Position numbers and translations under genes: made by a program
Part shown: positions 1 through 8,584 of the stretch, piece by piece
Position numbering within the stretch: the stretch's first letter is position 1
Layout: every line of letters begins with the position of its first letter
Origin: Dehalococcoidia bacterium
GTDB lineage: Bacteria > Chloroflexota > Dehalococcoidia > Lucifugimonadales > UBA1123
Length of the DNA stretch: 64,000 nt
Assembly: GCA_965116415.1 (NCBI GenBank)
Contig: OZ220693.1
Coordinates: 1,580,753 to 1,644,752, forward strand
Direction: 5' to 3'
The notes under the pieces: generated by a model
Told to the model about the DNA's origin: nothing
The model's database searches: none
What the model saw: only the letters and a program-made list of their open reading frames with translations

Positions 1-1385
1 GATCATCTGTCGTTAGTGGCACACCTTATGCGCAGGGCCGGGTTCGGAGCCACCCGGGACGAACTTGAACGTCGTCTCGCCGCGGGCTACGAAGCGACGG
101 TCGAGGACCTGTTACACCCAGAGTCGTACGAACCGCTCGACTTCTACGACTTCCTTCGCTACCTGCCCCTGCAGTGGAAGCCGGACACCCTGAACGGCAT
201 GGGACAGTCCGGATGGGTGTGGCGCATGATCAACACGAAGGCGCCGCTCCAGGAGAAGATGTGCCTGTTCTGGCACCAGATATTCGCCACCGGAGTCTCG
301 AAGGTCGATCACTACGACGAGGTCGTGGACATGATCGACGTCTTCAGAGAGAAGGGACTCGGTAAGTACCGCGAACTGCTGCTGGACATTGCACGCAATC
401 CCGCGATGCTGTACTGGCTCGACAACCACGAGAACCACGCCACAGCGGTCAACGAGAACTGGGGTCGCGAGCTTCTCGAGCTGTTCACCATGGGCGTCGG
501 CAACTACACCGAGGAAGACGTGTACGAGTGTTCCCGCGCCTTCACAGGCTGGACGATCAGCCCGAAGCTGCCCAGGTATCACATGGGACGGTGGGACTGG
601 CACTTCGAGTACCGTCCCGACGACCACGACGAGGGCGAGAAGACTTTCCTCGGCCATACTGGAAACTTCAACGGTGAGGACATCATCGACATCGCGCTTG
701 CACAGCCCGCGACGGCGAGGTTCATCGCACGTCATCTTTACGGCTTCTTCGTTGCTGACGAGGTGCAGGTACCAGCGTGGCAGGTGACGCCTCCGCGCGA
801 TCCTGAGGCCATCGAGGTCATCGCCAATGCGCTGACCGAATCAGACTTCGATATGCGCCATACGCTGCGGGTGCTGTTCAACTCCGACTTCTTCAAGGAG
901 ACCCGCTTCACGAAGGTCAAGAACCCGACTGAGGTCGTCGTCAGCGCGCTCAGGATGGTCGGCGGCGCTGAGCTCCCAAGCCTGGACGTGTACGACTACT
1001 GCAACCAGATCACGTACATGGGGCAGGACCTGCTCAATCCGCCAAGCGTGGAGGGATGGCACTACGGCGCAGAGTGGATCAACAGCAGCTCGCTGATGAA
1101 GCGCGCCAACTTCGTTGCCGACATTGTCGGCGAGACCGACCCGGTGTCCGCGACATCATCGAGCGGGTTAGAGCGTCCGGCGCGTCGCCGGAATCGGCTG
1201 TGGACGCCTGTATCGACCTGCTTGGGCCGGTCGCCCTGAATGACGAGACCCGTTTGGAGCTGATCGAGCACGCCCAGGTCTTCGGCGAGTTCGCCTGGGA
1301 CGAGGAGAACGTAGCCAGATCGGCCAAGCGGGTCGCAGAGCTGCTCCAGCTAATAGTTGCCACTAGGGAGTACCAGTTTGCGTGA
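1..1385 (+). pseudogene. DUF1800-family protein, 5' end cut by the window edge, reading frame broken near 1141-1145
   Basis: ORF 16..1239 is collinear with the intact paralog 27786..29189 up to MKRANFVAD. The conserved C-terminus (IIERVRASGASPESAVD...LLQLIVATREYQFA) continues in another frame (ORF 1056..1385). Comparison with 28900-28990 suggests loss of 1 nt in a CCCGG(G)T run. Codons 1-15 still match the paralog, so the start lies left of the window. Confidence 0.75.
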
Positions 1386-1462
1386 GTGACAGGGTTCACG
1401 GCCCAGCTGATCGATCTCTTCGGCCCCCATGCAAGCTAGCGCTTCCAGAAGGTATCGACATC

Positions 1463-2473
1463 ATGCTCACCAAGAAAATTGGCAGCCGCGTTTACGACTA
1501 TAGCTACGTCATCGGCGACCCGAACGAGACGCTGGAGCCGATAGCCCTCGCCGTCGGTGAAGAGAACGAACTGTTCGCGATCATCAAGGGCATCCTCGAG
1601 CTCTCACCCAATGTCACCCGGCTCTGGCTGGGCGACGGGCCCGGCGACGAGCGGATCGTCAACGTGATCGGCGACGGATACGGTGATGGTCCGGGGCAGT
1701 TCATCTGGCCGACAGGGGTTGCGCTGGACTCGGAGCGCAACGTCTACGTCACCGACGCCTGGACGGATCGCGTGTCCGTGTTCACCGTGGAGGGAGACTT
1801 CATCCGCTCGTTCGGGTCGCCCGGAGACGGCGACGGGCAGTTCAGGAGGCCCTCGGGTATCGCAATCGACGCGAACGACAACGTTCTGGTCGTCGACGCG
1901 CTCAACGACCGGGTTCAGAAGCTGACGCGAGACGGCAGCTTCATCTCGCAGTGGGGCTCCACAGGGTCAGGTGACGGAGAGTTCCTGTCGCCCTGGGGCA
2001 TCACGACCGACGTCTACGGCTATGTGTACGTCGCCGACTACAAGAACCACCGTATTCAGAAGTTCGACGGCGACGGCGGGTTCGTGTTCGCGCTTGGGAG
2101 TCGCGGCAGCGGCGACTACGAGTTCGATCACCCGTCGGACGTGGCAGTCGACCCGGACGGGGACATCTACGTCTGCGACTGGGCGAACAGCCGGGTGCAG
2201 GCGTACGACTCCGACGGGAAGTACATCACCACGTTTATCGGCGACGCCTACGAGCTGTCGAAGTGGCAGACGGATTTCGTGCGGGCCAATCCAGACGTTC
2301 ACAAGGCGCGGAGGCGGGTGTACTCGCTGGATCCCGAGAAGCGCTTCGCGCTGCCGATGGGAGTCGCGTTCGACCCGCACGGGTCGAGGCTGATGGTCGC
2401 AGACACTCAACGTTGGCGAATCCAGATCTACAACAAGGTTCTGGACTACAGCGAGCCGCAGTTCAATATTTGA
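1463..2473 (+). CDS. NHL-repeat six-bladed beta-propeller protein (paralog of 29374..30381)
   Basis: Repeated NHL-type units (GQFxxPxGIAxDxxxNVYVxDxxNxRVQKF). The ATG at 1463 (MLTKKIGSRVYDYSYV) aligns with the paralog start MMLTKIVGERVYDFSHV. Both share the C-terminus QRWRIQIYNK..PQFNI. Confidence 0.85.
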   Translation: MLTKKIGSRVYDYSYVIGDPNETLEPIALAVGEENELFAIIKGILELSPNVTRLWLGDGPGDERIVNVIGDGYGDGPGQFIWPTGVALDSERNVYVTDAWTDRVSVFTVEGDFIRSFGSPGDGDGQFRRPSGIAIDANDNVLVVDALNDRVQKLTRDGSFISQWGSTGSGDGEFLSPWGITTDVYGYVYVADYKNHRIQKFDGDGGFVFALGSRGSGDYEFDHPSDVAVDPDGDIYVCDWANSRVQAYDSDGKYITTFIGDAYELSKWQTDFVRANPDVHKARRRVYSLDPEKRFALPMGVAFDPHGSRLMVADTQRWRIQIYNKVLDYSEPQFNI

Positions 2474-2568
2474 GGGGGGGGGCACGCCGCCCATTCTGCG
2501 AACTCAGGCGCTCGTGACGCTTCAAGACACCACCAGCGGAGTTGGTCCCTTTCACGCGGACTGATGGA

Positions 2569-2590
2569 GGCCATCACACGTGTGATGGCC
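2569..2590. promoter_or_regulatory. Perfect 22-bp palindrome GGCCATCACACGTGTGATGGCC, candidate operator or hairpin
   Basis: Read directly. It lies about 75 bp upstream of the ATG at 2665 and about 96 bp downstream of the NHL gene stop. Confidence 0.4.
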
Positions 2591-2664
2591 TAGTCGGTCC
2601 GTGTAGAGTCTCCGTCGCGTTGCAACGGATTGACATGAGGGTCACACAACGGTATTGTTGTGTT

Positions 2665-3105
2665 ATGGTGCCTGACTTCGACCGATCGGGGCTCCTCCCT
2701 ACAGGAGTGCACTGGGCCAATTGGGAAGAGCTGTTCCAAAGGTTCGGACACAATCCTTGGAGGTTCCGGCTGCTCTTGGGACTCAGGGCTGCCTTGGAGA
2801 GTCTGAAGAATGCCGGCTGTCGGACTGCATACATTGATGGAAGCTTTGTAACTGACAAGGAATTCCCAAATGACTACGACGCCTGCTGGGAAGAGGAAGG
2901 TGTAGACCCACTGAATCTGGACCCTGTTCTCCTTACGTTCGACCCTGGCCGTATCACTCAGAAGGACAAGTACCTGGGAGAGCTGTTCCCTGCAACAGCT
3001 GTGGCAAATCCAGACGGGTTTTCCTTCCTAGAATTCTTCCAGACTGACAGAGACACGGGGAAGCGCAAAGGGATCGTCGCCATAGACCTGGAGCAACTGA
3101 ATTGA
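2665..3105 (+). CDS. Minimal nucleotidyltransferase-fold protein (Pol-beta superfamily, DUF6932-like)
   Basis: N-terminus MVPDFDRSGLLPTGVHWANWEELFQRFG. The motif IDGSFVTDKEFPNDYDAC fits the hG[GS]x9-13DxD NTase signature. The stop overlaps the start of the downstream HTH gene. The 2542 start is rejected as a GC-rich extension. Confidence 0.65.
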   Translation: MVPDFDRSGLLPTGVHWANWEELFQRFGHNPWRFRLLLGLRAALESLKNAGCRTAYIDGSFVTDKEFPNDYDACWEEEGVDPLNLDPVLLTFDPGRITQKDKYLGELFPATAVANPDGFSFLEFFQTDRDTGKRKGIVAIDLEQLN

Positions 3106-3530
3106 TTAAGAACGAACGTCAGTACCGGATAACCAGGGCACAGGCTGAGCGCTTTGAGCGCACACTTTCAGAACTACGAACTCGAGGGCAGAAGAGCAGT
3201 GATGTGCATCCTCTCATCGCCAAGGCTCAGAAAGAGGCGGTAGAGAGCCAGTTGGCAGACCTTAGAAGCGAACTGCGCGAGTATGAGTCACTAAAGGCCG
3301 GTGAGTTCCCGATAGACGATCTCAAGGTTGTATCCGGGCTGCCATCCATGCTCATCAAGGCGCGGATCTCCCGGGGGATGAGCCAGAAAGACCTCGCCGA
3401 GCGAATAGGTCTCAAGGAGCAGCAGATACAGAGATACGAGGCGACCGACTATTCATCTGCCAGCCTATCGCGGATCAGGGAGGTGGTGAGCGGGTTGTAC
3501 GAGAGTTCGGTGCCTCGGGACGAGGGTTGA
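3102..3530 (+). CDS. XRE-family helix-turn-helix protein with N-terminal helical extension (antitoxin-like)
   Basis: The C-terminal motif MSQKDLAERIGLKEQQIQRYEATDYSSASLSRI is HTH_3-like. It overlaps the upstream gene stop by 4 nt (TTGA), implying translational coupling. Confidence 0.75.
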   Translation: MIKNERQYRITRAQAERFERTLSELRTRGQKSSDVHPLIAKAQKEAVESQLADLRSELREYESLKAGEFPIDDLKVVSGLPSMLIKARISRGMSQKDLAERIGLKEQQIQRYEATDYSSASLSRIREVVSGLYESSVPRDEG

Positions 3531-3593
3531 ATGTCTTCAACGTGCTTTTGCCAATTTCGAAGCTAGCTAAGTCTGTCAGCCACACTCAAAGTT

Positions 3594-3650
3594 ACGATTG
3601 GACGGTACTCAACCTTACAATTGGACGCACCTGAACTCGACAATTGGACG
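3594..3650 (+). repeat. Three direct copies of ACRATTGGACG phased at exactly 23 bp (starts 3594, 3617, 3640)
   Basis: Counted from the sequence: ACGATTGGACG, ACAATTGGACG, ACAATTGGACG, separated by non-conserved 12-bp spacers. Confidence 0.85.
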
Positions 3651-3857
3651 ATTTTCAGAGGATCCCAGGAAGTGGCTTGCTGCTAGGCAATCCTGAAGGG
3701 TGTGGGTGTTGCCTAGAGGCTAGGATCACGGCCTTTTCTTTTCCCCTCACCGCAGCCGTTTCCTTAGCTTGGTTTGGGGTCTGCTTAAATTTACCTGCGT
3801 GATACTACTGGCAAATTGGCGGTGGAGGAGTAACACATTCAATTGGGAGAACGCGGT

Positions 3858-4595
3858 ATGAGCTATTTCGGTTACAGCGATGACTTCAATTTCGATGGGC
3901 ACGATCCTCTGTTCACATTTGATCATGGCCTGAGACACGATTACCTGTCTCAGTTGATATCCATTCGTGCGCTACTCTGGCGTCAACACCACGCTGACGC
4001 TCAGCTTCAAGCGCAGATTGAAAGTATGGAGGGGGTTGCCAGAAACTCCAGAGGAGAGGCTAACGACATTGCTGTTGACCGACACATCGAGTTGATACAT
4101 GACTCAATCTATCAGGATGCAGCGCACAGCATGGCAGCTGTCGGTATGGTGGCGCCGCTACTGGAGTCGATCTTCAAGCACGTCTTTGAACAGCTGGGAA
4201 GGAAGAAGCCAGAAGGATGGCTAGCGAAGAAGATAATGACGATGGTTGATGACGAGAGTCTAGATATGAGGGAATACATGCCGAAGGACCTCAATCTGAC
4301 TTTGGAAGCCCTATTTTTGTACCGAAACAAGATGTTTCACCACGGCCTCGAGTGGCCCCAGACTCAGCGTGAGGCGTTTGCGGACCGTCTACCGGACTGG
4401 CCAGAAGGCTGGTTTTTAAGCTCGACTTCAGATGGAGAACCGTGGATGTTCTACATGTCTGGGGAGTTCATCTCCCACTGCCTCGACACAGTTGAGGATG
4501 TCCTCAGAGGTCTCATCAGATTTCAACTAGGTCCTGGACGTGAAATCTGGAAGTACCCTTGGGAAGCACGAGACTCTACCGACACCCTCCAATGA
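3858..4595 (+). CDS. Hypothetical protein with HEPN-like Rx4H motif (LFLYRNKMFHHGLEW)
   Basis: ATG at 3858 is preceded by GGGAGA. The protein looks helical and carries a single RNKMFH motif in its C-terminal half. GC is visibly lower than in the flanks. Confidence 0.5.
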   Translation: MSYFGYSDDFNFDGHDPLFTFDHGLRHDYLSQLISIRALLWRQHHADAQLQAQIESMEGVARNSRGEANDIAVDRHIELIHDSIYQDAAHSMAAVGMVAPLLESIFKHVFEQLGRKKPEGWLAKKIMTMVDDESLDMREYMPKDLNLTLEALFLYRNKMFHHGLEWPQTQREAFADRLPDWPEGWFLSSTSDGEPWMFYMSGEFISHCLDTVEDVLRGLIRFQLGPGREIWKYPWEARDSTDTLQ

Positions 4596-4825
4596 ATGGT
4601 AGAAAGTCCGCAGACCCGTGGTAGTCGACACTCAATGACGATCGACGAGATTGGTCCGACAATCGCACATCTCTCAAAGAATCGGCAGACAACCCATTTG
4701 GTCTCGTTAAATCACCTTGCGGGGCGGGCTGGGTGAGAATCAATAATGCCCTTTCAGAGTCACGAGCAAAGTAGAATAAATCGAGTGAACGTGACTGGCA
4801 TGAGTGTCTGGCCGAGTGCAACCTT

Positions 4826-4905
4826 GCAATTGGACGCATATGAACGTTACGATTGGACGGTATATTACTCGACAATTGGACGCATAGCAGCCCGACAATC
4901 GGACG
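4826..4905 (+). repeat. Four direct copies of the same 11-bp motif phased at 23 bp (starts 4826, 4849, 4872, 4895), ending at the ATPase ATG
   Basis: GCAATTGGACG, ACGATTGGACG, ACAATTGGACG, ACAATCGGACG. The flanks of individual units match units of the 3594 cluster but in a different order. Confidence 0.85.
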
Positions 4906-6285
4906 ATGCCAGAACCTACCATCTACCCCAGGTATATCGAGTCGCGACTTGCTGAGGCGCTGGAAGACTCGCCGGTTGTTCTGATTCACGGACCTCGTCA
5001 GTGTGGCAAGACCACTCTCGCACAGACTGTGTGCGCGCCCTCCCAACTGACTTGGGGAGGAGAAGCCATTACTTGGCGAGAAACCCCTTTAAGCTTCCTG
5101 TCAAGCTCCACTCGGGATTACGAGTACGTAAGCTTCGACGATGACAACCTCAGGGCAGGGGCGCAGACTGATCCCATGGGGTTTGTGTATGACCTGCCTG
5201 AGCGCGTCATTCTGGACGAGGTCCAGCGAGTTCCTGAACTGTTCACTGCACTGAAGCTGGAGGTAGACCGCCGCCGGATGCCGGGCCGGTTCGTGCTGAC
5301 CGGATCATCCAACATATTGCTCATCCCGAAACTGGCCGACTCTCTAGCAGGCCGGATGGAAGTCGTACGTCTCCACCCTCTTGGACAGGACGAAATACAG
5401 GGGAGCTTCCCCAGGCCAGAGCCTCTGATTGTCGCTTCTGATCCTCGCTCAGGGTTTATCGATGCTCTGTTCAGTGGGAGATTCCGAACAAGCCACTCAG
5501 AGCGGCTCGGCAAACAACTTTACGAGCGCATTGTGGCTGGCGGGTTTCCTCCAGCCATAGCCCGACAAACGGGTCGCCGACGTGCCTCATGGTACCGAGA
5601 CTACGCCAAGGCCCACGTTCAGCGAGACGTTCAGGATCTAGCACGAATCAAGGGACTGGACGTTCTGCCTGACCTGCTCAATGCTACTGCATCTCAGACG
5701 GCGAGGCTATACAACCTCACTGACCTCTCTTCACCGTTCCAGCAGTCGCGGCAGACTATCGGGGACTACGTGACTCTTCTTGAGAGGGTGTTTCTGATCG
5801 AGCGACTGAGACCGTGGTACAACAACAGACTCAACCGACTGGTGAAGACACCGAAACTGCACATTGGAGACACCGGACTCGGCTGCGCTGTGCTGGGACT
5901 GGACGAACGTGGGCTGGCTGCCAACCGCGAAGTGCTGGGCCAGATGCTTGAGACCTTCGTGTACCAGGAGCTGCGACGGCAGGCTAGCTGGAATCCCAAT
6001 CCCGTCTCGTTCTTCCACTATCGGGACAAGGACCAGATCGAGGTGGACATCGTAGTCGAACGGGGGCCGAATGCTGTTGCCGGCGTGGAGGTGAAAGCTG
6101 GAGCTACGGTGAGACCTTCGGACTTCAGAGGGCTGCGTAGGCTGAAGAAGGTCGTTGGAGATCGATTTACTGCGGGAGTTGTTCTGTACGATGGCGAGAC
6201 CGCAGTGAGCTTCGGTGATGGGCTTTACGCCATTCCCATCCGCCAGATATGGGAGACGCCTTTCGCAACCGGCGTGGAGCGTTAG
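4906..6285 (+). CDS. AAA+ ATPase of the AAA_14/DUF4143 type
   Basis: Walker A GPRQCGKTTL and Walker B VILDEVQRVPELF. The C-terminal region is typical of DUF4143 ATPases (FHYRDKDQIEVDIVVE). Confidence 0.85.
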   Translation: MPEPTIYPRYIESRLAEALEDSPVVLIHGPRQCGKTTLAQTVCAPSQLTWGGEAITWRETPLSFLSSSTRDYEYVSFDDDNLRAGAQTDPMGFVYDLPERVILDEVQRVPELFTALKLEVDRRRMPGRFVLTGSSNILLIPKLADSLAGRMEVVRLHPLGQDEIQGSFPRPEPLIVASDPRSGFIDALFSGRFRTSHSERLGKQLYERIVAGGFPPAIARQTGRRRASWYRDYAKAHVQRDVQDLARIKGLDVLPDLLNATASQTARLYNLTDLSSPFQQSRQTIGDYVTLLERVFLIERLRPWYNNRLNRLVKTPKLHIGDTGLGCAVLGLDERGLAANREVLGQMLETFVYQELRRQASWNPNPVSFFHYRDKDQIEVDIVVERGPNAVAGVEVKAGATVRPSDFRGLRRLKKVVGDRFTAGVVLYDGETAVSFGDGLYAIPIRQIWETPFATGVER

Positions 6286-7172
6286 AGGCCAGTAGCTGTG
6301 TCGCGGGGGTCTTCGAGTTCTTCGGGGGTGATGATCACGGAGCGGGCTTCTATGGCGCCGTTCTCGGCGGCGGGGCCTGCTGCTCTGACCTGCATTCCGA
6401 CCTCAAGGTCGGTGAAGGCTCCCTCGCGTGTTTCGAGGATGACGGAGTCGTCGTCTATGGTTATCGGGAGTGAGCCCTGCTGGGTTTCGAGAGTGAATCC
6501 GGAGTCGGTTGCGCCTGTGACGGCGCCGAAGAGGCCGCCGCGTCCACCGGGAGCTCCCTGCCCGCCGCCAAGCCTTCCCAGTCCGGCGCCTCGGAAGCCT
6601 GTCTGACCCTCGGGAATGATGGTTATGGCCCTCGCGATGGTCTTTCCATCCTGGCGTTCGCTGACTACCATGACCTGGGTGTCGTCGGTCAGGGCCGTTG
6701 GTTCGAGGGCCGACGTGATTCTGATGATGGTGTCCGCTCCGACGTTTACTGAGACTGAGGCGAGGTCTGTCGCAACTGTGATGGTATTCTCTCCGATGCT
6801 CTCGATGGAGCCTGCTACCTGGCTGCCTCCGGGTCCGCCGGGGCCGTCGCCGAACTGTGATCTGATCCTCTGGAACGCCTGGCGGGCCTCCTCTTCGGTC
6901 AGTTGGCCGCTCTGAAGTCGCTGTCTTAGCTCCTGGATCTCTTCCTGGGTCATCGGCGCCTGCTCGCTGTCCGCGCCAGCACCCTGGGTTGTCTGTGCCT
7001 GGGTGACGACTGGCGGTGAGGTGGGCTGTGGCTCAGCCTGGGAGCGCGTGGGGGTTGGGAACTGGGACATATCGGCGACCTGGGCGGTGGTGGGGCTGGC
7101 TTCCTGTTCAGAGGAGCTGCACGCGACGGCTAGGAGGAGAAGGATGGCCAACCCTGTGAAGATGACCAGCAT
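6282..7172 (-). CDS. Secreted lipoprotein, low-complexity, function unknown
   Basis: Start chosen at MLVIFTGLAILLLLAVAC (lipobox LAVAC). It has Pro/Gln/Gly-rich linkers and is the last gene of the HlyD-permease operon on the minus strand. Confidence 0.6.
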   Translation of the reverse strand: MLVIFTGLAILLLLAVACSSSEQEASPTTAQVADMSQFPTPTRSQAEPQPTSPPVVTQAQTTQGAGADSEQAPMTQEEIQELRQRLQSGQLTEEEARQAFQRIRSQFGDGPGGPGGSQVAGSIESIGENTITVATDLASVSVNVGADTIIRITSALEPTALTDDTQVMVVSERQDGKTIARAITIIPEGQTGFRGAGLGRLGGGQGAPGGRGGLFGAVTGATDSGFTLETQQGSLPITIDDDSVILETREGAFTDLEVGMQVRAAGPAAENGAIEARSVIITPEELEDPRDTATGL

Positions 7173-7301
7173 TGTCTTCAATTGATTCTCGCTTTCTGTG
7201 GATTCCCGCTTTCGGAGACCTTTGCATGACATCGTCGTTCCGGCGGAGCCCGGAACCCAGAGGTGTGTGGTAAGTACCCGGTAGCTTGGACGAATGACCT
7301 T

Positions 7302-7340
7302 TTCACCCTCACCCTAGCCCTCTCCCTCAGGGAGAGGGGA
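7302..7340 (+). repeat. REP-like element, family A (TTCACCCTCACCC-N-CCCTCTCCC loop GGGAGAGGG)
   Basis: Stem CCCTCTCCC 7318-7326 pairs with GGGAGAGGG 7330-7338. Same consensus as the other family A copies listed. Confidence 0.85.
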
Positions 7341-7372
7341 TTTTGGAAGGATTTGCACTCGCTGGACTTGCG

Positions 7373-8584
7373 TCATTCGTATCTCAGGGCGTCTATTGGG
7401 TGGAGGCCGGAGGCTCTGGCGGCTGGGTAGATGCCGAAGAACAGGCCGATTCCGGCGGATACGGCCAGTGCGAGGATGGCGAACTCGAGGCTGAAGCTTG
7501 TCGTGAAGGTCTGGTTGCCCAGTGAGCGTCCGTCTACAAGGTTGGTCATTGCGAAGCCGAGGGCCGCTCCGAGGAGGCCGCCTCCGATGCTCAGGACCGT
7601 CGCCTCTGCCACGAACTGGAAGAGGATGTCACTGCGCTTCGCGCCCATCGTCTTGCGGATGCCGATCTCGCGGGTGCGCTCGGTGACAGACACGAGCATG
7701 ATGTTCATTATGCCGATACCGCCCACGAGCAGGGAGATGCCTGCGATCACGCCGAGGAAGACGACGAGCGTGTTCGTGGTCTCTTCAAGGGTCTCAATAG
7801 TGCTCTGCTGGCTGATGACTGTGAAGTCGTCCTCGCCGGTTATGCGGTGGCGCAGTCTGAGCACACCACTGGCCTCCTCGATGCTGCGGTCGACATCGTC
7901 GACGCTCCTGACCTGGACGTTGATGAGGCTTACGGAGACGTCGCCGGCAGAGGTGCGGTCTCCACTGAGCCGGTAGTAGGCTGTGGTGATGGGTATCAAC
8001 ACCTGGGTGTCGAACGTTCCGAATCCGGTTCCGCCCTGGCTAGCGAGCAGCCCTATCACCCTGAACCTACGTCCGTTTACTCGGACGTAGTCGCCTACCG
8101 GGTCACGGTTCTGGAAGAGCTGTTCTGCTACGTTGGCGCCCAGAACGATGACCTCGTCGCGGTTGTCGACGTGGGCAAACCTGATGAACATGCCACTGGC
8201 AAGGTCCAGGCTCCGTGCGCCGAGGTACTCGGGGGTCACGCCGACCACCTGGGCCGTGGTGTTCTCGCGGCCTGCGGCGAGGGTCGCAAAGCTGCGGATT
8301 TCAGGTGCGGCGGCAAGTATGGTCGGGGCGTAGACTGGGTCGACCAGAGCGTTGGCGTCGCCGAGCGTAAGCTGCGCATCGTCCCCCTCAGGCTGTACGA
8401 ACAGGAGGTTGGTGCCCAGACCCTGGATGATCCCCGTGATCTGCTGGGTTGCGCCGCGACCGATCGACATGAGCGTGATCACGGCGGTCACACCTATGAC
8501 GATACCCAGCAGCGCGAGGCCGGCGCGGAGCTTGTTGGCCTCTAGTGAGGCGATGGCTGTCCTTATGGTCTGTAGTGGTGACAT
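7373..8584 (-). CDS. ABC transporter permease, MacB/FtsX family
   Basis: N-terminal TM, a large periplasmic domain and a C-terminal FtsX-like 3-TM block (ERTREIGIRKTMGA motif). Confidence 0.85.
   Translation of the reverse strand: MSPLQTIRTAIASLEANKLRAGLALLGIVIGVTAVITLMSIGRGATQQITGIIQGLGTNLLFVQPEGDDAQLTLGDANALVDPVYAPTILAAAPEIRSFATLAAGRENTTAQVVGVTPEYLGARSLDLASGMFIRFAHVDNRDEVIVLGANVAEQLFQNRDPVGDYVRVNGRRFRVIGLLASQGGTGFGTFDTQVLIPITTAYYRLSGDRTSAGDVSVSLINVQVRSVDDVDRSIEEASGVLRLRHRITGEDDFTVISQQSTIETLEETTNTLVVFLGVIAGISLLVGGIGIMNIMLVSVTERTREIGIRKTMGAKRSDILFQFVAEATVLSIGGGLLGAALGFAMTNLVDGRSLGNQTFTTSFSLEFAILALAVSAGIGLFFGIYPAARASGLHPIDALRYE

Follow-up and report, generated by a model that had tools for sequence, protein, structure and literature searches.

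The window analysed here, a stretch of 64,000 nucleotides from a Dehalococcoidia bacterium (contig OZ220693.1), carries two clusters of short direct repeats, an open reading frame (ORF) between them, ORF245, and immediately behind the second cluster a gene encoding an ATPase with AAA_14 and DUF4143 domains (Table 1). A reading made from the sequence alone had described the clusters as iteron-like and as flanking one gene. In this study, we find that the second cluster exemplifies a cis-element that is widespread, seems not to have been described before and belongs to a very abundant, uncharacterised gene family. The ATPase belongs to the defence candidate PDC-S01. With ~29,000 bacterial and ~10,000 archaeal detections, PDC-S01 ranks fourth in frequency among defence candidates and awaits validation (PMC12988326). 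One PDC-S01 representative was not among the systems protecting Escherichia coli from T7, T5 and T4 (bioRxiv 10.1101/2024.09.26.614923). DUF4143 itself appears in a list of PD-(D/E)XK families as one without known function (PMC3424549).

Two phased clusters of direct repeats

Seven copies of ACAATTGGACG, each with at most one mismatch and all on the forward strand, start at 3594, 3617 and 3640 (cluster 1) and at 4826, 4849, 4872 and 4895 (cluster 2), with a period of exactly 23 bp within both clusters. The starts, the single orientation and the phasing given in the sequence-only reading were all reproduced. No further copy at one mismatch or less is found in the 64 kb. The chance expectation for this length is 0.87 copies (standard deviation 0.86) and none of 100 shuffles reached seven; the shuffles together with the family-wide conservation described below rule out chance or a generic repeat. 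The last unit of cluster 2 ends at 4905 and the ATG of the ATPase gene begins at 4906, hence the unit abuts the start codon as had been noted.

The conserved unit exceeds the 11 bp first proposed. Comparison across the family reveals a 13-bp core, TTNCAATYRGMCG, and shows that the spacer closes on its 3' side with a conserved 'AAMC'. In place of 12-bp variable spacers there are thus only ~4-6 free positions per unit. Between the clusters, the best unit matches are 3594 with 4849 (18/23), 3617 with 4826 (20/23) and 3640 with 4872 (19/23). Cluster 1 thus corresponds to the second, first and third unit of cluster 2, a permuted relative, which agrees with the earlier observation of shared flanks in shuffled order. 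The clusters do lie on both sides of ORF245, but the supposed tight bracketing does not hold, cluster 1 being 207 nt upstream and cluster 2 230 nt downstream of the frame. A CRISPR array, dismissed already at first sight, is rejected here as well: CRISPR repeats measure ~24-48 nt and alternate with unique spacers of similar length, whereas here 13-bp cores are separated by partly conserved spacers of 9-10 bp.

Table 1. Features of the window discussed in the text
Feature	Position	Strand	Remarks
DUF1800 gene	16-1239	+	
NHL-repeat protein gene	1382-2473	+	
DUF6932 gene	2542/2776-3105	+	gene caller start 2776
XRE-type helix-turn-helix (HTH) gene	3102-3530	+	
Cluster 1, orphan array	3592-3650	+	three units, 23-bp period; 13-bp cores 3592-3604, 3615-3627, 3638-3650; no ATPase gene or remnant on the 3' side
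ORF245	3858-4595	+	between the two clusters; no Pfam, NCBIfam or PADLOC match
Cluster 2, family-conserved array	4824-4905	+	four units, 23-bp period; cores 4824-4836, 4847-4859, 4870-4882, 4893-4905; abuts ATPase start codon
Putative core promoter in cluster 2	4869-4899	+	-35-like TCGACA 4869-4874, 19-bp spacer, -10-like GACAAT 4894-4899; read from sequence
AAA_14 + DUF4143 ATPase gene	4906-6285	+	459 amino acids; PADLOC PDC-S01
Predicted winged helix-turn-helix	5656-5865	+	residues ~251-320, recognition helix residues 282-294 'RQTIGDYVTLLE'; structure model
PD-(D/E)XK nuclease motif	6046-6096	+	D381 ... E395-V-K397; invariant columns

An array shared across the ATPase gene family

A protein-guided scan, restricted to one genome per species, yielded 80 loci with homologous AAA_14/DUF4143 ATPases of 56-85% identity. 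They come from Dehalococcoidia and other Chloroflexota, Binatia, Latescibacterota, Gamma-, Alpha- and Deltaproteobacteria, Polyangiaceae, Planctomycetota, Nitrospirae, Opitutales and Acidimicrobiales, ~10 phyla overall. On viral contigs, only five relatives were found. Units in the same orientation precede the ATPase gene at every one of the 80 loci, and at 79 of them at least three units are phased (mode 4, maximum 13). Neighbouring units are mostly 23 bp apart (227 cases), otherwise 22 bp (85) or 21 bp (one case), and the unit consensus reads (t)AAcc-TTGCAATyrGaCG. An ATG or GTG follows directly after the last unit at 70 loci. Exceptions include L067, whose degenerate array ends 24 nt from the ATG, and L073, where the array is interrupted. 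Most genome loci hold a single array. Some arrays, such as those of L080 (~3800-4000), L020 (~3720-4000) and L044, have 8-13 units that are nearly identical, spacers included, which suggests that slippage or unequal exchange has expanded them recently.

To test the converse, metagenome contigs were scanned blindly for three phased units; the scan returned at least 120 loci. Among the 120 matches listed, 91 have an ATPase homolog right after the array, six end at a contig edge and 23 lack the ATPase. The motif is therefore neither scattered nor a local oddity: in other genomes too it is phased, a point that the sequence-only reading had wished to see checked, and it is linked to a gene. A functional link between array and ATPase gene is, in our view, nearly certain.

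A putative leaderless promoter in the last two units

The units of an array are not equivalent. The third position of the unit is A in 90% of last units, giving TTACAAT, mostly preceded by aG, whereas penultimate units have G there in 79% of cases (TTGCAA) and the units before them have either G or T. Read as a -10 hexamer, the TACAAT of the last unit has its first T at -12 and ends 7 nt before the start codon, and the -35-like TTGCAA of the penultimate unit lies 17-18 bp upstream of it. The sigma-70 criteria of the scan tool are satisfied by the last pair of units at 47 of 78 genome loci as compared to seven of 232 upstream pairs. At L070, for instance, the scan calls TTGCAA-18-TACAAT ending at 3994, 7 nt before the ATG at 4001. 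There is no room for a Shine-Dalgarno sequence between the last unit and the start codon. The motif TANNNT ~12 bp upstream of the start codon is a signature of leaderless bacterial genes, Chloroflexi included (PMC3160421). The -10 and -35 boxes in the last two units thus imply a leaderless promoter inside the array, from which transcription would start at the start codon. In the window, the transcript would probably begin at or beside the A of the ATG at 4906 and be leaderless. As in autoregulatory operators, the repeated sites overlap the -35, -10 and +1 positions of the adjacent gene, judged by consensus match only.

More distant homologs also carry repeats at the start of the gene. In a subfamily of 40-44% identity (Sinorhizobium L090 and L215 and L216 on viral contigs) units phased at 22 or 23 bp persist, but here they occupy the spacer and the +1 position of a promoter distinct from them, with TTGACT and -10 boxes, and a Shine-Dalgarno leader goes with the gene. 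Among homologs of 27-32% identity, direct repeats of 23 bp are present in Mycobacterium L085 (GTGGAATCAG) and Sulfitobacter L086, and of 22 bp in L217. In Runella L089, Moraxella L087 and Azotobacter L084 there are instead perfect or near-perfect palindromes of 20-22 nt that end at or overlap the ATG. These palindromes (L089 1452-1492, L087 1442-1486, L084 1462-1508) lie on plasmids, and their arm length is about the unit length of the direct arrays. Altogether nine of 11 distant loci show a repeat or palindrome at the start of the ATPase gene. Homologs of 27-44% identity occur on plasmids too.

These comparisons bear on a reading in which the array is merely a stack of duplicated promoter modules, its period being the distance from -35 to -10, that is read by RNA polymerase with sigma-70 and has no dedicated regulator. 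TTGCAA and TGCAAT do resemble the two hexamers, a period of 22-23 bp gives spacers of 17-18 bp, and sigma-70 is the sole DNA reader common to all phyla involved. However, upstream units have G or T and not A at -11, which makes them poor -10 boxes, yet they keep the GGACG tail and the spacer AAMC. The phased units of the Rhizobiales subfamily are out of register with its TTGACT and -10 boxes, and in distant homologs this place is taken by unrelated repeats or palindromes. We consider such a stack quite unlikely. Since GGACG and AAMC are conserved in all units and the register is shifted in the 40-44% subfamily, the sequence pattern suggests that the units are more than RNA polymerase contacts.

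The repeats might also act as RNA, as a 5' leader or a small RNA, for example a type III antitoxin-like RNA or a sponge for the nuclease. In ToxIN, the toxin is an endoRNase with a different fold, and ToxI consists of transcribed, structured 36-nt repeats with a terminator behind them. A nuclease-domain gene in a defence context that has tandem direct repeats immediately upstream recalls ToxI/ToxN, and the orientation of the array is fixed relative to the gene. Unlike ToxIN, the array has 23-bp units, a promoter signature within it and an AAA_14/DUF4143 gene behind it. There is no terminator between the repeats and the ATG. Folding of the two clusters is no more stable than that of shuffles (z -0.34 and +0.88), and no Rfam match at E<=1 is found in 3300-5100. 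The asymmetry of A versus G in the last unit agrees with a -10 box, the sites of distant homologs are DNA palindromes, and the conserved block begins at the first unit, hence there is no conserved upstream promoter from which such an RNA could be made. We hold an RNA role to be extremely unlikely. A type III toxin-antitoxin system in particular is rejected, since terminator, RNA structure and Rfam match are missing and the gene is of the AAA_14/DUF4143 and not the ToxN/AbiQ type.

An ATPase-nuclease with a predicted winged helix

The window ATPase matches AAA_14 (1.4e-24) and DUF4143 (2.5e-43) in Pfam and the PADLOC profile of PDC-S01 (PDLC04790) with an E-value of 2.1e-153. Walker A (G29-T37), Walker B (D104/E105) and the nuclease motif D381...E395-x-K397 are invariant in 42 homologs. 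No solved structure of a homolog was found by sequence. A first full-length model was weak over the winged helix-turn-helix (wHTH) region, with a predicted confidence (pLDDT) of 36-59; the C-terminal half was therefore re-modelled with a broader alignment. The resulting AlphaFold model ma79086cd2ce2 (pLDDT 81.7) shows the order H1-b-H2-H3-b-wing-b, with pLDDT 84-93 in the wHTH region. In Foldseek searches, the wHTH matches repressors of the MarR/MepR/MexR and ArsR/SmtB/CzrA types with probabilities of 0.97-1.0, the ATPase module matches AAA+ proteins of the clamp-loader/RuvB type and the C-terminal domain matches the nucleases Can2, Card1 and VC1899. Pfam makes no HTH call on residues 235-325, only DUF4143, and the wHTH rests on the structure model. 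As modelled, it is a candidate for the array-binding domain.

The ATPase as candidate binder of its own array

Which protein reads the array can be approached through what accompanies it. At the 80 genome loci the ATPase gene is the only conserved neighbour of the array; the largest other flanking family is present at 17 of 80 loci, in scattered positions and on both strands. The array and the ATPase gene travel together. Pairs of loci whose ATPase DNA is 85-95% identical have nothing in common beyond the stretch that runs from the first unit to the stop codon, and their flanks are unrelated. L106 and L148, for example, are 94.7% identical from -83 to +1243, L139 and L176 likewise share such a block, and the same is seen between the window and L003 and L004. 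Given that no other neighbour is conserved and that gene and array co-travel, the binder is likely self-encoded, and the conservation of the motif across phyla argues against a host-specific factor. None of the other local genes is a likely partner: among ~200 array loci, the XRE-type HTH gene and the DUF6932 gene, both considered as binders, and ORF245, considered as a regular partner of the array, co-occur with arrays only in the window and in L091. As in operator arrays, the product of the adjacent gene would carry a DNA-binding domain, here the wHTH predicted by the structure model. Its recognition-helix residues differ between subfamilies that carry different repeats. The protein column most associated with position 11 of the motif (A versus C) is residue 286 (G or R), which is located in the recognition helix.

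Binding of the array by the ATPase itself, with autorepression, is in our opinion the most economical reading and a rather probable one. Each unit would be bound by the winged helix of one ATPase protomer, and the protomers would assemble head-to-tail, possibly in an ATP-dependent manner. The last units, which lie over -35, -10 and +1, would when occupied repress the gene's own leaderless transcript, and release of the protein would de-repress the gene. Of the options offered by the sequence-only reading, this favours cooperative regulator sites, the array being the conserved promoter region of the ATPase gene family.

Several points weigh against autorepression by the ATPase. The association at residue 286 is mostly one clade split with exceptions on both sides, L178 and L101 having R with A-type units and L206, L210 and L012-15 having G with C-type units, and is therefore suggestive only. 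Simple autorepression needs neither the arrays downstream of the gene (L018, L030, L035, L045, L069, L073) nor the orphan arrays described below, and array length varies from 3 to 13 units. The weak TCGACA-19-GACAAT of the window is not called by the promoter scan. The last pairs show no enrichment of the 22-bp period that gives a 17-bp spacer; 23 bp (18-bp spacer) is found in 69% of loci, no better than for upstream pairs. Finally, every functional step, namely binding, start site and expression, is inferred.

Cluster 1, orphan arrays and second arrays

Cluster 1 is an orphan copy of the array and as such one of a common class, since orphans make up ~15-20% of the metagenome arrays. By tblastn, no ATPase remnant is detected after it in 2401-4905. 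It is 100% identical over 62 nt to its counterpart in L091, the locus that holds both clusters, in flanks which are ~60-85% identical. This indicates either constraint or recent conversion. Recombination or gene loss may have left cluster 1 behind as a relic, which might have been kept as a decoy or auxiliary operator. With the GACAAT box of its last unit, 207 nt upstream of ORF245, cluster 1 might also drive that frame, which would then come under the same control as the ATPase gene. An imperfect hairpin with a terminator-like site (AGAGGCTAGGATCACGGCCTTT + TCTTTTCCCC) is located at 3676-3745, ~65 nt after the cluster; its stem is not conserved in L091.

Of the 23 metagenome arrays without a close ATPase among the matches listed, three are followed by ATPase fragments (L107, L134, L137) and one by a relative of 30% identity. 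The remaining orphans, ~15 distinct loci among these matches, lie in contexts rich in toxin-antitoxin systems and mobile elements. In L137 the array is joined directly to ATPase codons ~364-414. Homology between metagenome loci breaks exactly at the 3' end of the last unit in the pairs L137/L150, L111/L177 and L097/L100; for L111 and L177 the homology is limited to a module of 149 nt, made up of 92 nt and the array, and the rest of their sequence is unrelated. Around the orphan arrays of L100, L125 and L097 there are several copies of ~110-nt dispersed repeats (in L100 at 1-111, 1545-1686 and 2683-2790), which may be a small mobile repeat. Second arrays directly after the ATPase stop codon are present in L018, L030, L035, L045, L069 and L073, and those of the close relatives L018, L030, L035 and L045 vary in unit number (3-5). 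Partial array duplicates together with the first few ATPase codons are found in L004 and L032.

Gene context of the window and its relatives

The closest relatives of the window ATPase are from Dehalococcoidia metagenome-assembled genomes, where their loci sit on chromosomal contigs of 3-5 Mb. In L003 and L004, the DUF1800 and NHL-repeat genes and the block of array and ATPase are syntenic with the window, and the segment corresponding to ~2485-4800 (DUF6932, HTH, cluster 1 and ORF245) is missing or replaced. The pair of DUF1800 and NHL-repeat genes lies on both sides of the block in L003, at 473-2943 and 5608-8093 (85% and 76% identical to window 6-2475), which places the ATPase between two paralogous copies. 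The presence of ORF245 is indeed variable, as the sequence-only reading had wished to see checked: the gene is absent from L003 and L004, and present in L091 with 91% identity.

The neighbourhood is island-like. DUF6932 matches the PADLOC candidate PDC-M63A (E 1.3e-8); the DUF6932 and XRE-type HTH genes (2542-3530) overlap by 4 nt in the manner of a toxin-antitoxin or defence pair, and in L091 they are called as a single product of 288 amino acids. GC content is 0.46-0.55 over 2800-4900, from DUF6932 to the array, versus 0.55-0.67 in the 3' half of the ATPase gene and beyond, consistent with an acquired island. For ORF245, 347 homologs were found, forming a family without Pfam assignment. Members on the contigs of L092-L094 adjoin genes for SMODS, DUF6602, AbiEi/AbiEii, SIR2-STAND and PLD-nuclease proteins, and ORF245 may therefore be an unrecognised defence-island gene. 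The homologs examined elsewhere are all in defence-island contexts and none of them has an array. Defence-island contexts are seen at other array loci too. In L171 and L198 an hsdM-like type I methylase gene begins in an ATGA overlap with the stop codon of the ATPase gene, and in L006 a large helicase/restriction-like ORF is near the array locus.

The arrays might also be recombination or attachment sites of mobile cassettes, so that array and gene, or array and ORF245, would move by recombination between arrays. Array and ORF do form a discrete block, 93-95% identical between unrelated flanks and bounded by the first unit and the stop codon. The frequent orphans, the breakpoints at the 3' end of the last unit, the ATPase remnants directly after arrays and the absence of ORF245 from L003 and L004 would all suit a cassette. 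On the other hand, no recombinase or transposase is consistently nearby among the neighbours of the 80 loci, the right boundary of the block shows neither a repeat unit nor a target duplication, and the arrays are direct, not inverted. Sharp boundaries can also arise from homologous exchange within the sole conserved non-coding stretch combined with rapid island turnover. We judge arrays as cassette ends very unlikely. Arm-type recombinase sites or a cassette, as entertained in the sequence-only reading for 3858-4595, are not borne out: no recombinase is nearby, ORF245 homologs elsewhere are without arrays and the variable segment is larger than the bracketed interval.

Tn7 ends deserve comparison here. 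They hold three and four TnsB sites of ~22 bp, inverted and ending TGT/ACA, they need a DDE transposase, and the system includes an AAA+ ATPase and a PD-(D/E)XK nuclease. The window clusters likewise comprise three and four sites of ~22 bp. Unlike Tn7 ends, both are direct, no transposase lies between or beside them, and the array is tied to the start of a gene. Terminal clusters of the Tn7/Mu type are rejected on these grounds and for want of a conserved neighbour in the 80 loci.

Comparison with other repeat arrays

Iterons of the P1/F type (RepA with incC/incA; RepE with incB/incC) are direct repeats of ~19-22 bp, about two helical turns apart. One cluster overlaps the rep promoter and mediates autorepression, and a second cluster of the same orientation can lie beyond the gene. 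The arrays described here are similar in that their direct repeats (22-23 bp) are about two helical turns apart and lie over the promoter of the gene next to them, and at times a cluster is present on either side of this gene. Unlike P1/F iterons, they go with an AAA+-wHTH-PD-(D/E)XK protein and not with a Rep_3/WH1-WH2 initiator, they abut a leaderless start codon, and an AT-rich unwinding element or DnaA box is lacking. The likeness noted in the sequence-only reading therefore stands as to form and fails as to the features of a replicon.

The array could nevertheless be mainly an assembly or loading platform for the real function of the ATPase-nuclease, with the promoter overlap secondary. 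Such a platform might bind an initiator as iterons do, with handcuffing between arrays, act in the manner of a centromere, or be a 'home' site which keeps the nuclease inactive. In its favour are the iteron-like repeat geometry, the array-gene-array layout of L018, L030, L035, L045, L069 and L073, the two clusters of the window, the variable unit number and the order of AAA+ followed by wHTH, which is the domain logic of Orc1/Cdc6 and RuvB. Opposed to it, Pfam and NCBIfam searches found no Rep-family protein, there is no AT-rich region (the minimum GC content of any 100 bp over 2500-6500 is 0.46), and no DnaA box (TTWTNCACA) exists in 64 kb. Most loci have a single array, the loci of close relatives are chromosomal, and the position-specific -10/-35 signature points to a promoter role for at least the last units. 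We think it unlikely that the platform is the main function. An iteron-type replication origin is not supported, since Rep initiator, AT-rich element and DnaA box are lacking, and the chromosomal relatives make it improbable as well.

The partition loci R1 parC-ParR and pB171 parC1/parC2-ParB also have short direct repeats that hold the operon promoter and are cooperatively bound by the operon product, and two clusters can flank the locus. Their repeats are 6-11 bp and are bound by ribbon-helix-helix proteins that act with ParM or ParA; here, the unit is 22-23 bp and the gene is single. No ParA/ParM-type partition ATPase is found by Pfam at the locus.

The DnaA boxes at dnaA, archaeal Orc1/Cdc6 with its ORB sites, the MalT boxes and the SARP/AfsR regulators are examples in which an AAA+ or STAND ATPase with an HTH or wHTH oligomerises on repeated boxes of the same orientation, over promoters and beside its own gene or a target gene. 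The window family likewise fuses an ATPase module to a predicted wHTH, and its boxes overlap promoter elements. It differs in the AAA_14 subfamily and the C-terminal nuclease. Peculiar to the family, too, are the sequence of the boxes, their 23-bp period and their contact with the start codon.

PDC-S01, whose profile the window ATPase matches, is defined by protein only and without a cis-element. Full-text literature searches on DUF4143, COG1373 and PDC-S01 returned no published description of the repeat array. In its kind, the array resembles known autoregulatory operator or iteron-type arrays. New are its particulars: the AAA+-wHTH-nuclease partner, the 22-23 bp period, the last unit serving as -10 box of a leaderless gene and the frequent orphans.

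Implications

A broader role is conceivable, which we put forward as speculative and unlikely. The array would be the native DNA ligand for head-to-tail polymerisation of the ATPase, and array and gene together would be a self-contained, horizontally mobile one-gene module. Occupancy would set expression and hold or license the nuclease, and array edges would be preferred points of breakage or recombination that generate the orphan arrays and the array-gene-array layouts. If true, this would represent a DNA-anchored conflict or selfish element that consists of a single gene and is new in type.

The array provides a concrete candidate DNA ligand with which the uncharacterised DUF4143/COG1373 (PDC-S01) ATPase-nucleases could be approached by biochemistry and cryo-EM, and a testable regulatory model, that of a leaderless, self-repressed gene. 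It is also a signature by which functional, decayed and lost copies of the gene can be marked in genomes. In heterologous tests of PDC-S01, the outcome may depend on whether the native array is kept or omitted. Culturable relatives in Rhizobium, Agrobacterium and Sinorhizobium carry the same kind of array, which makes experiments feasible.

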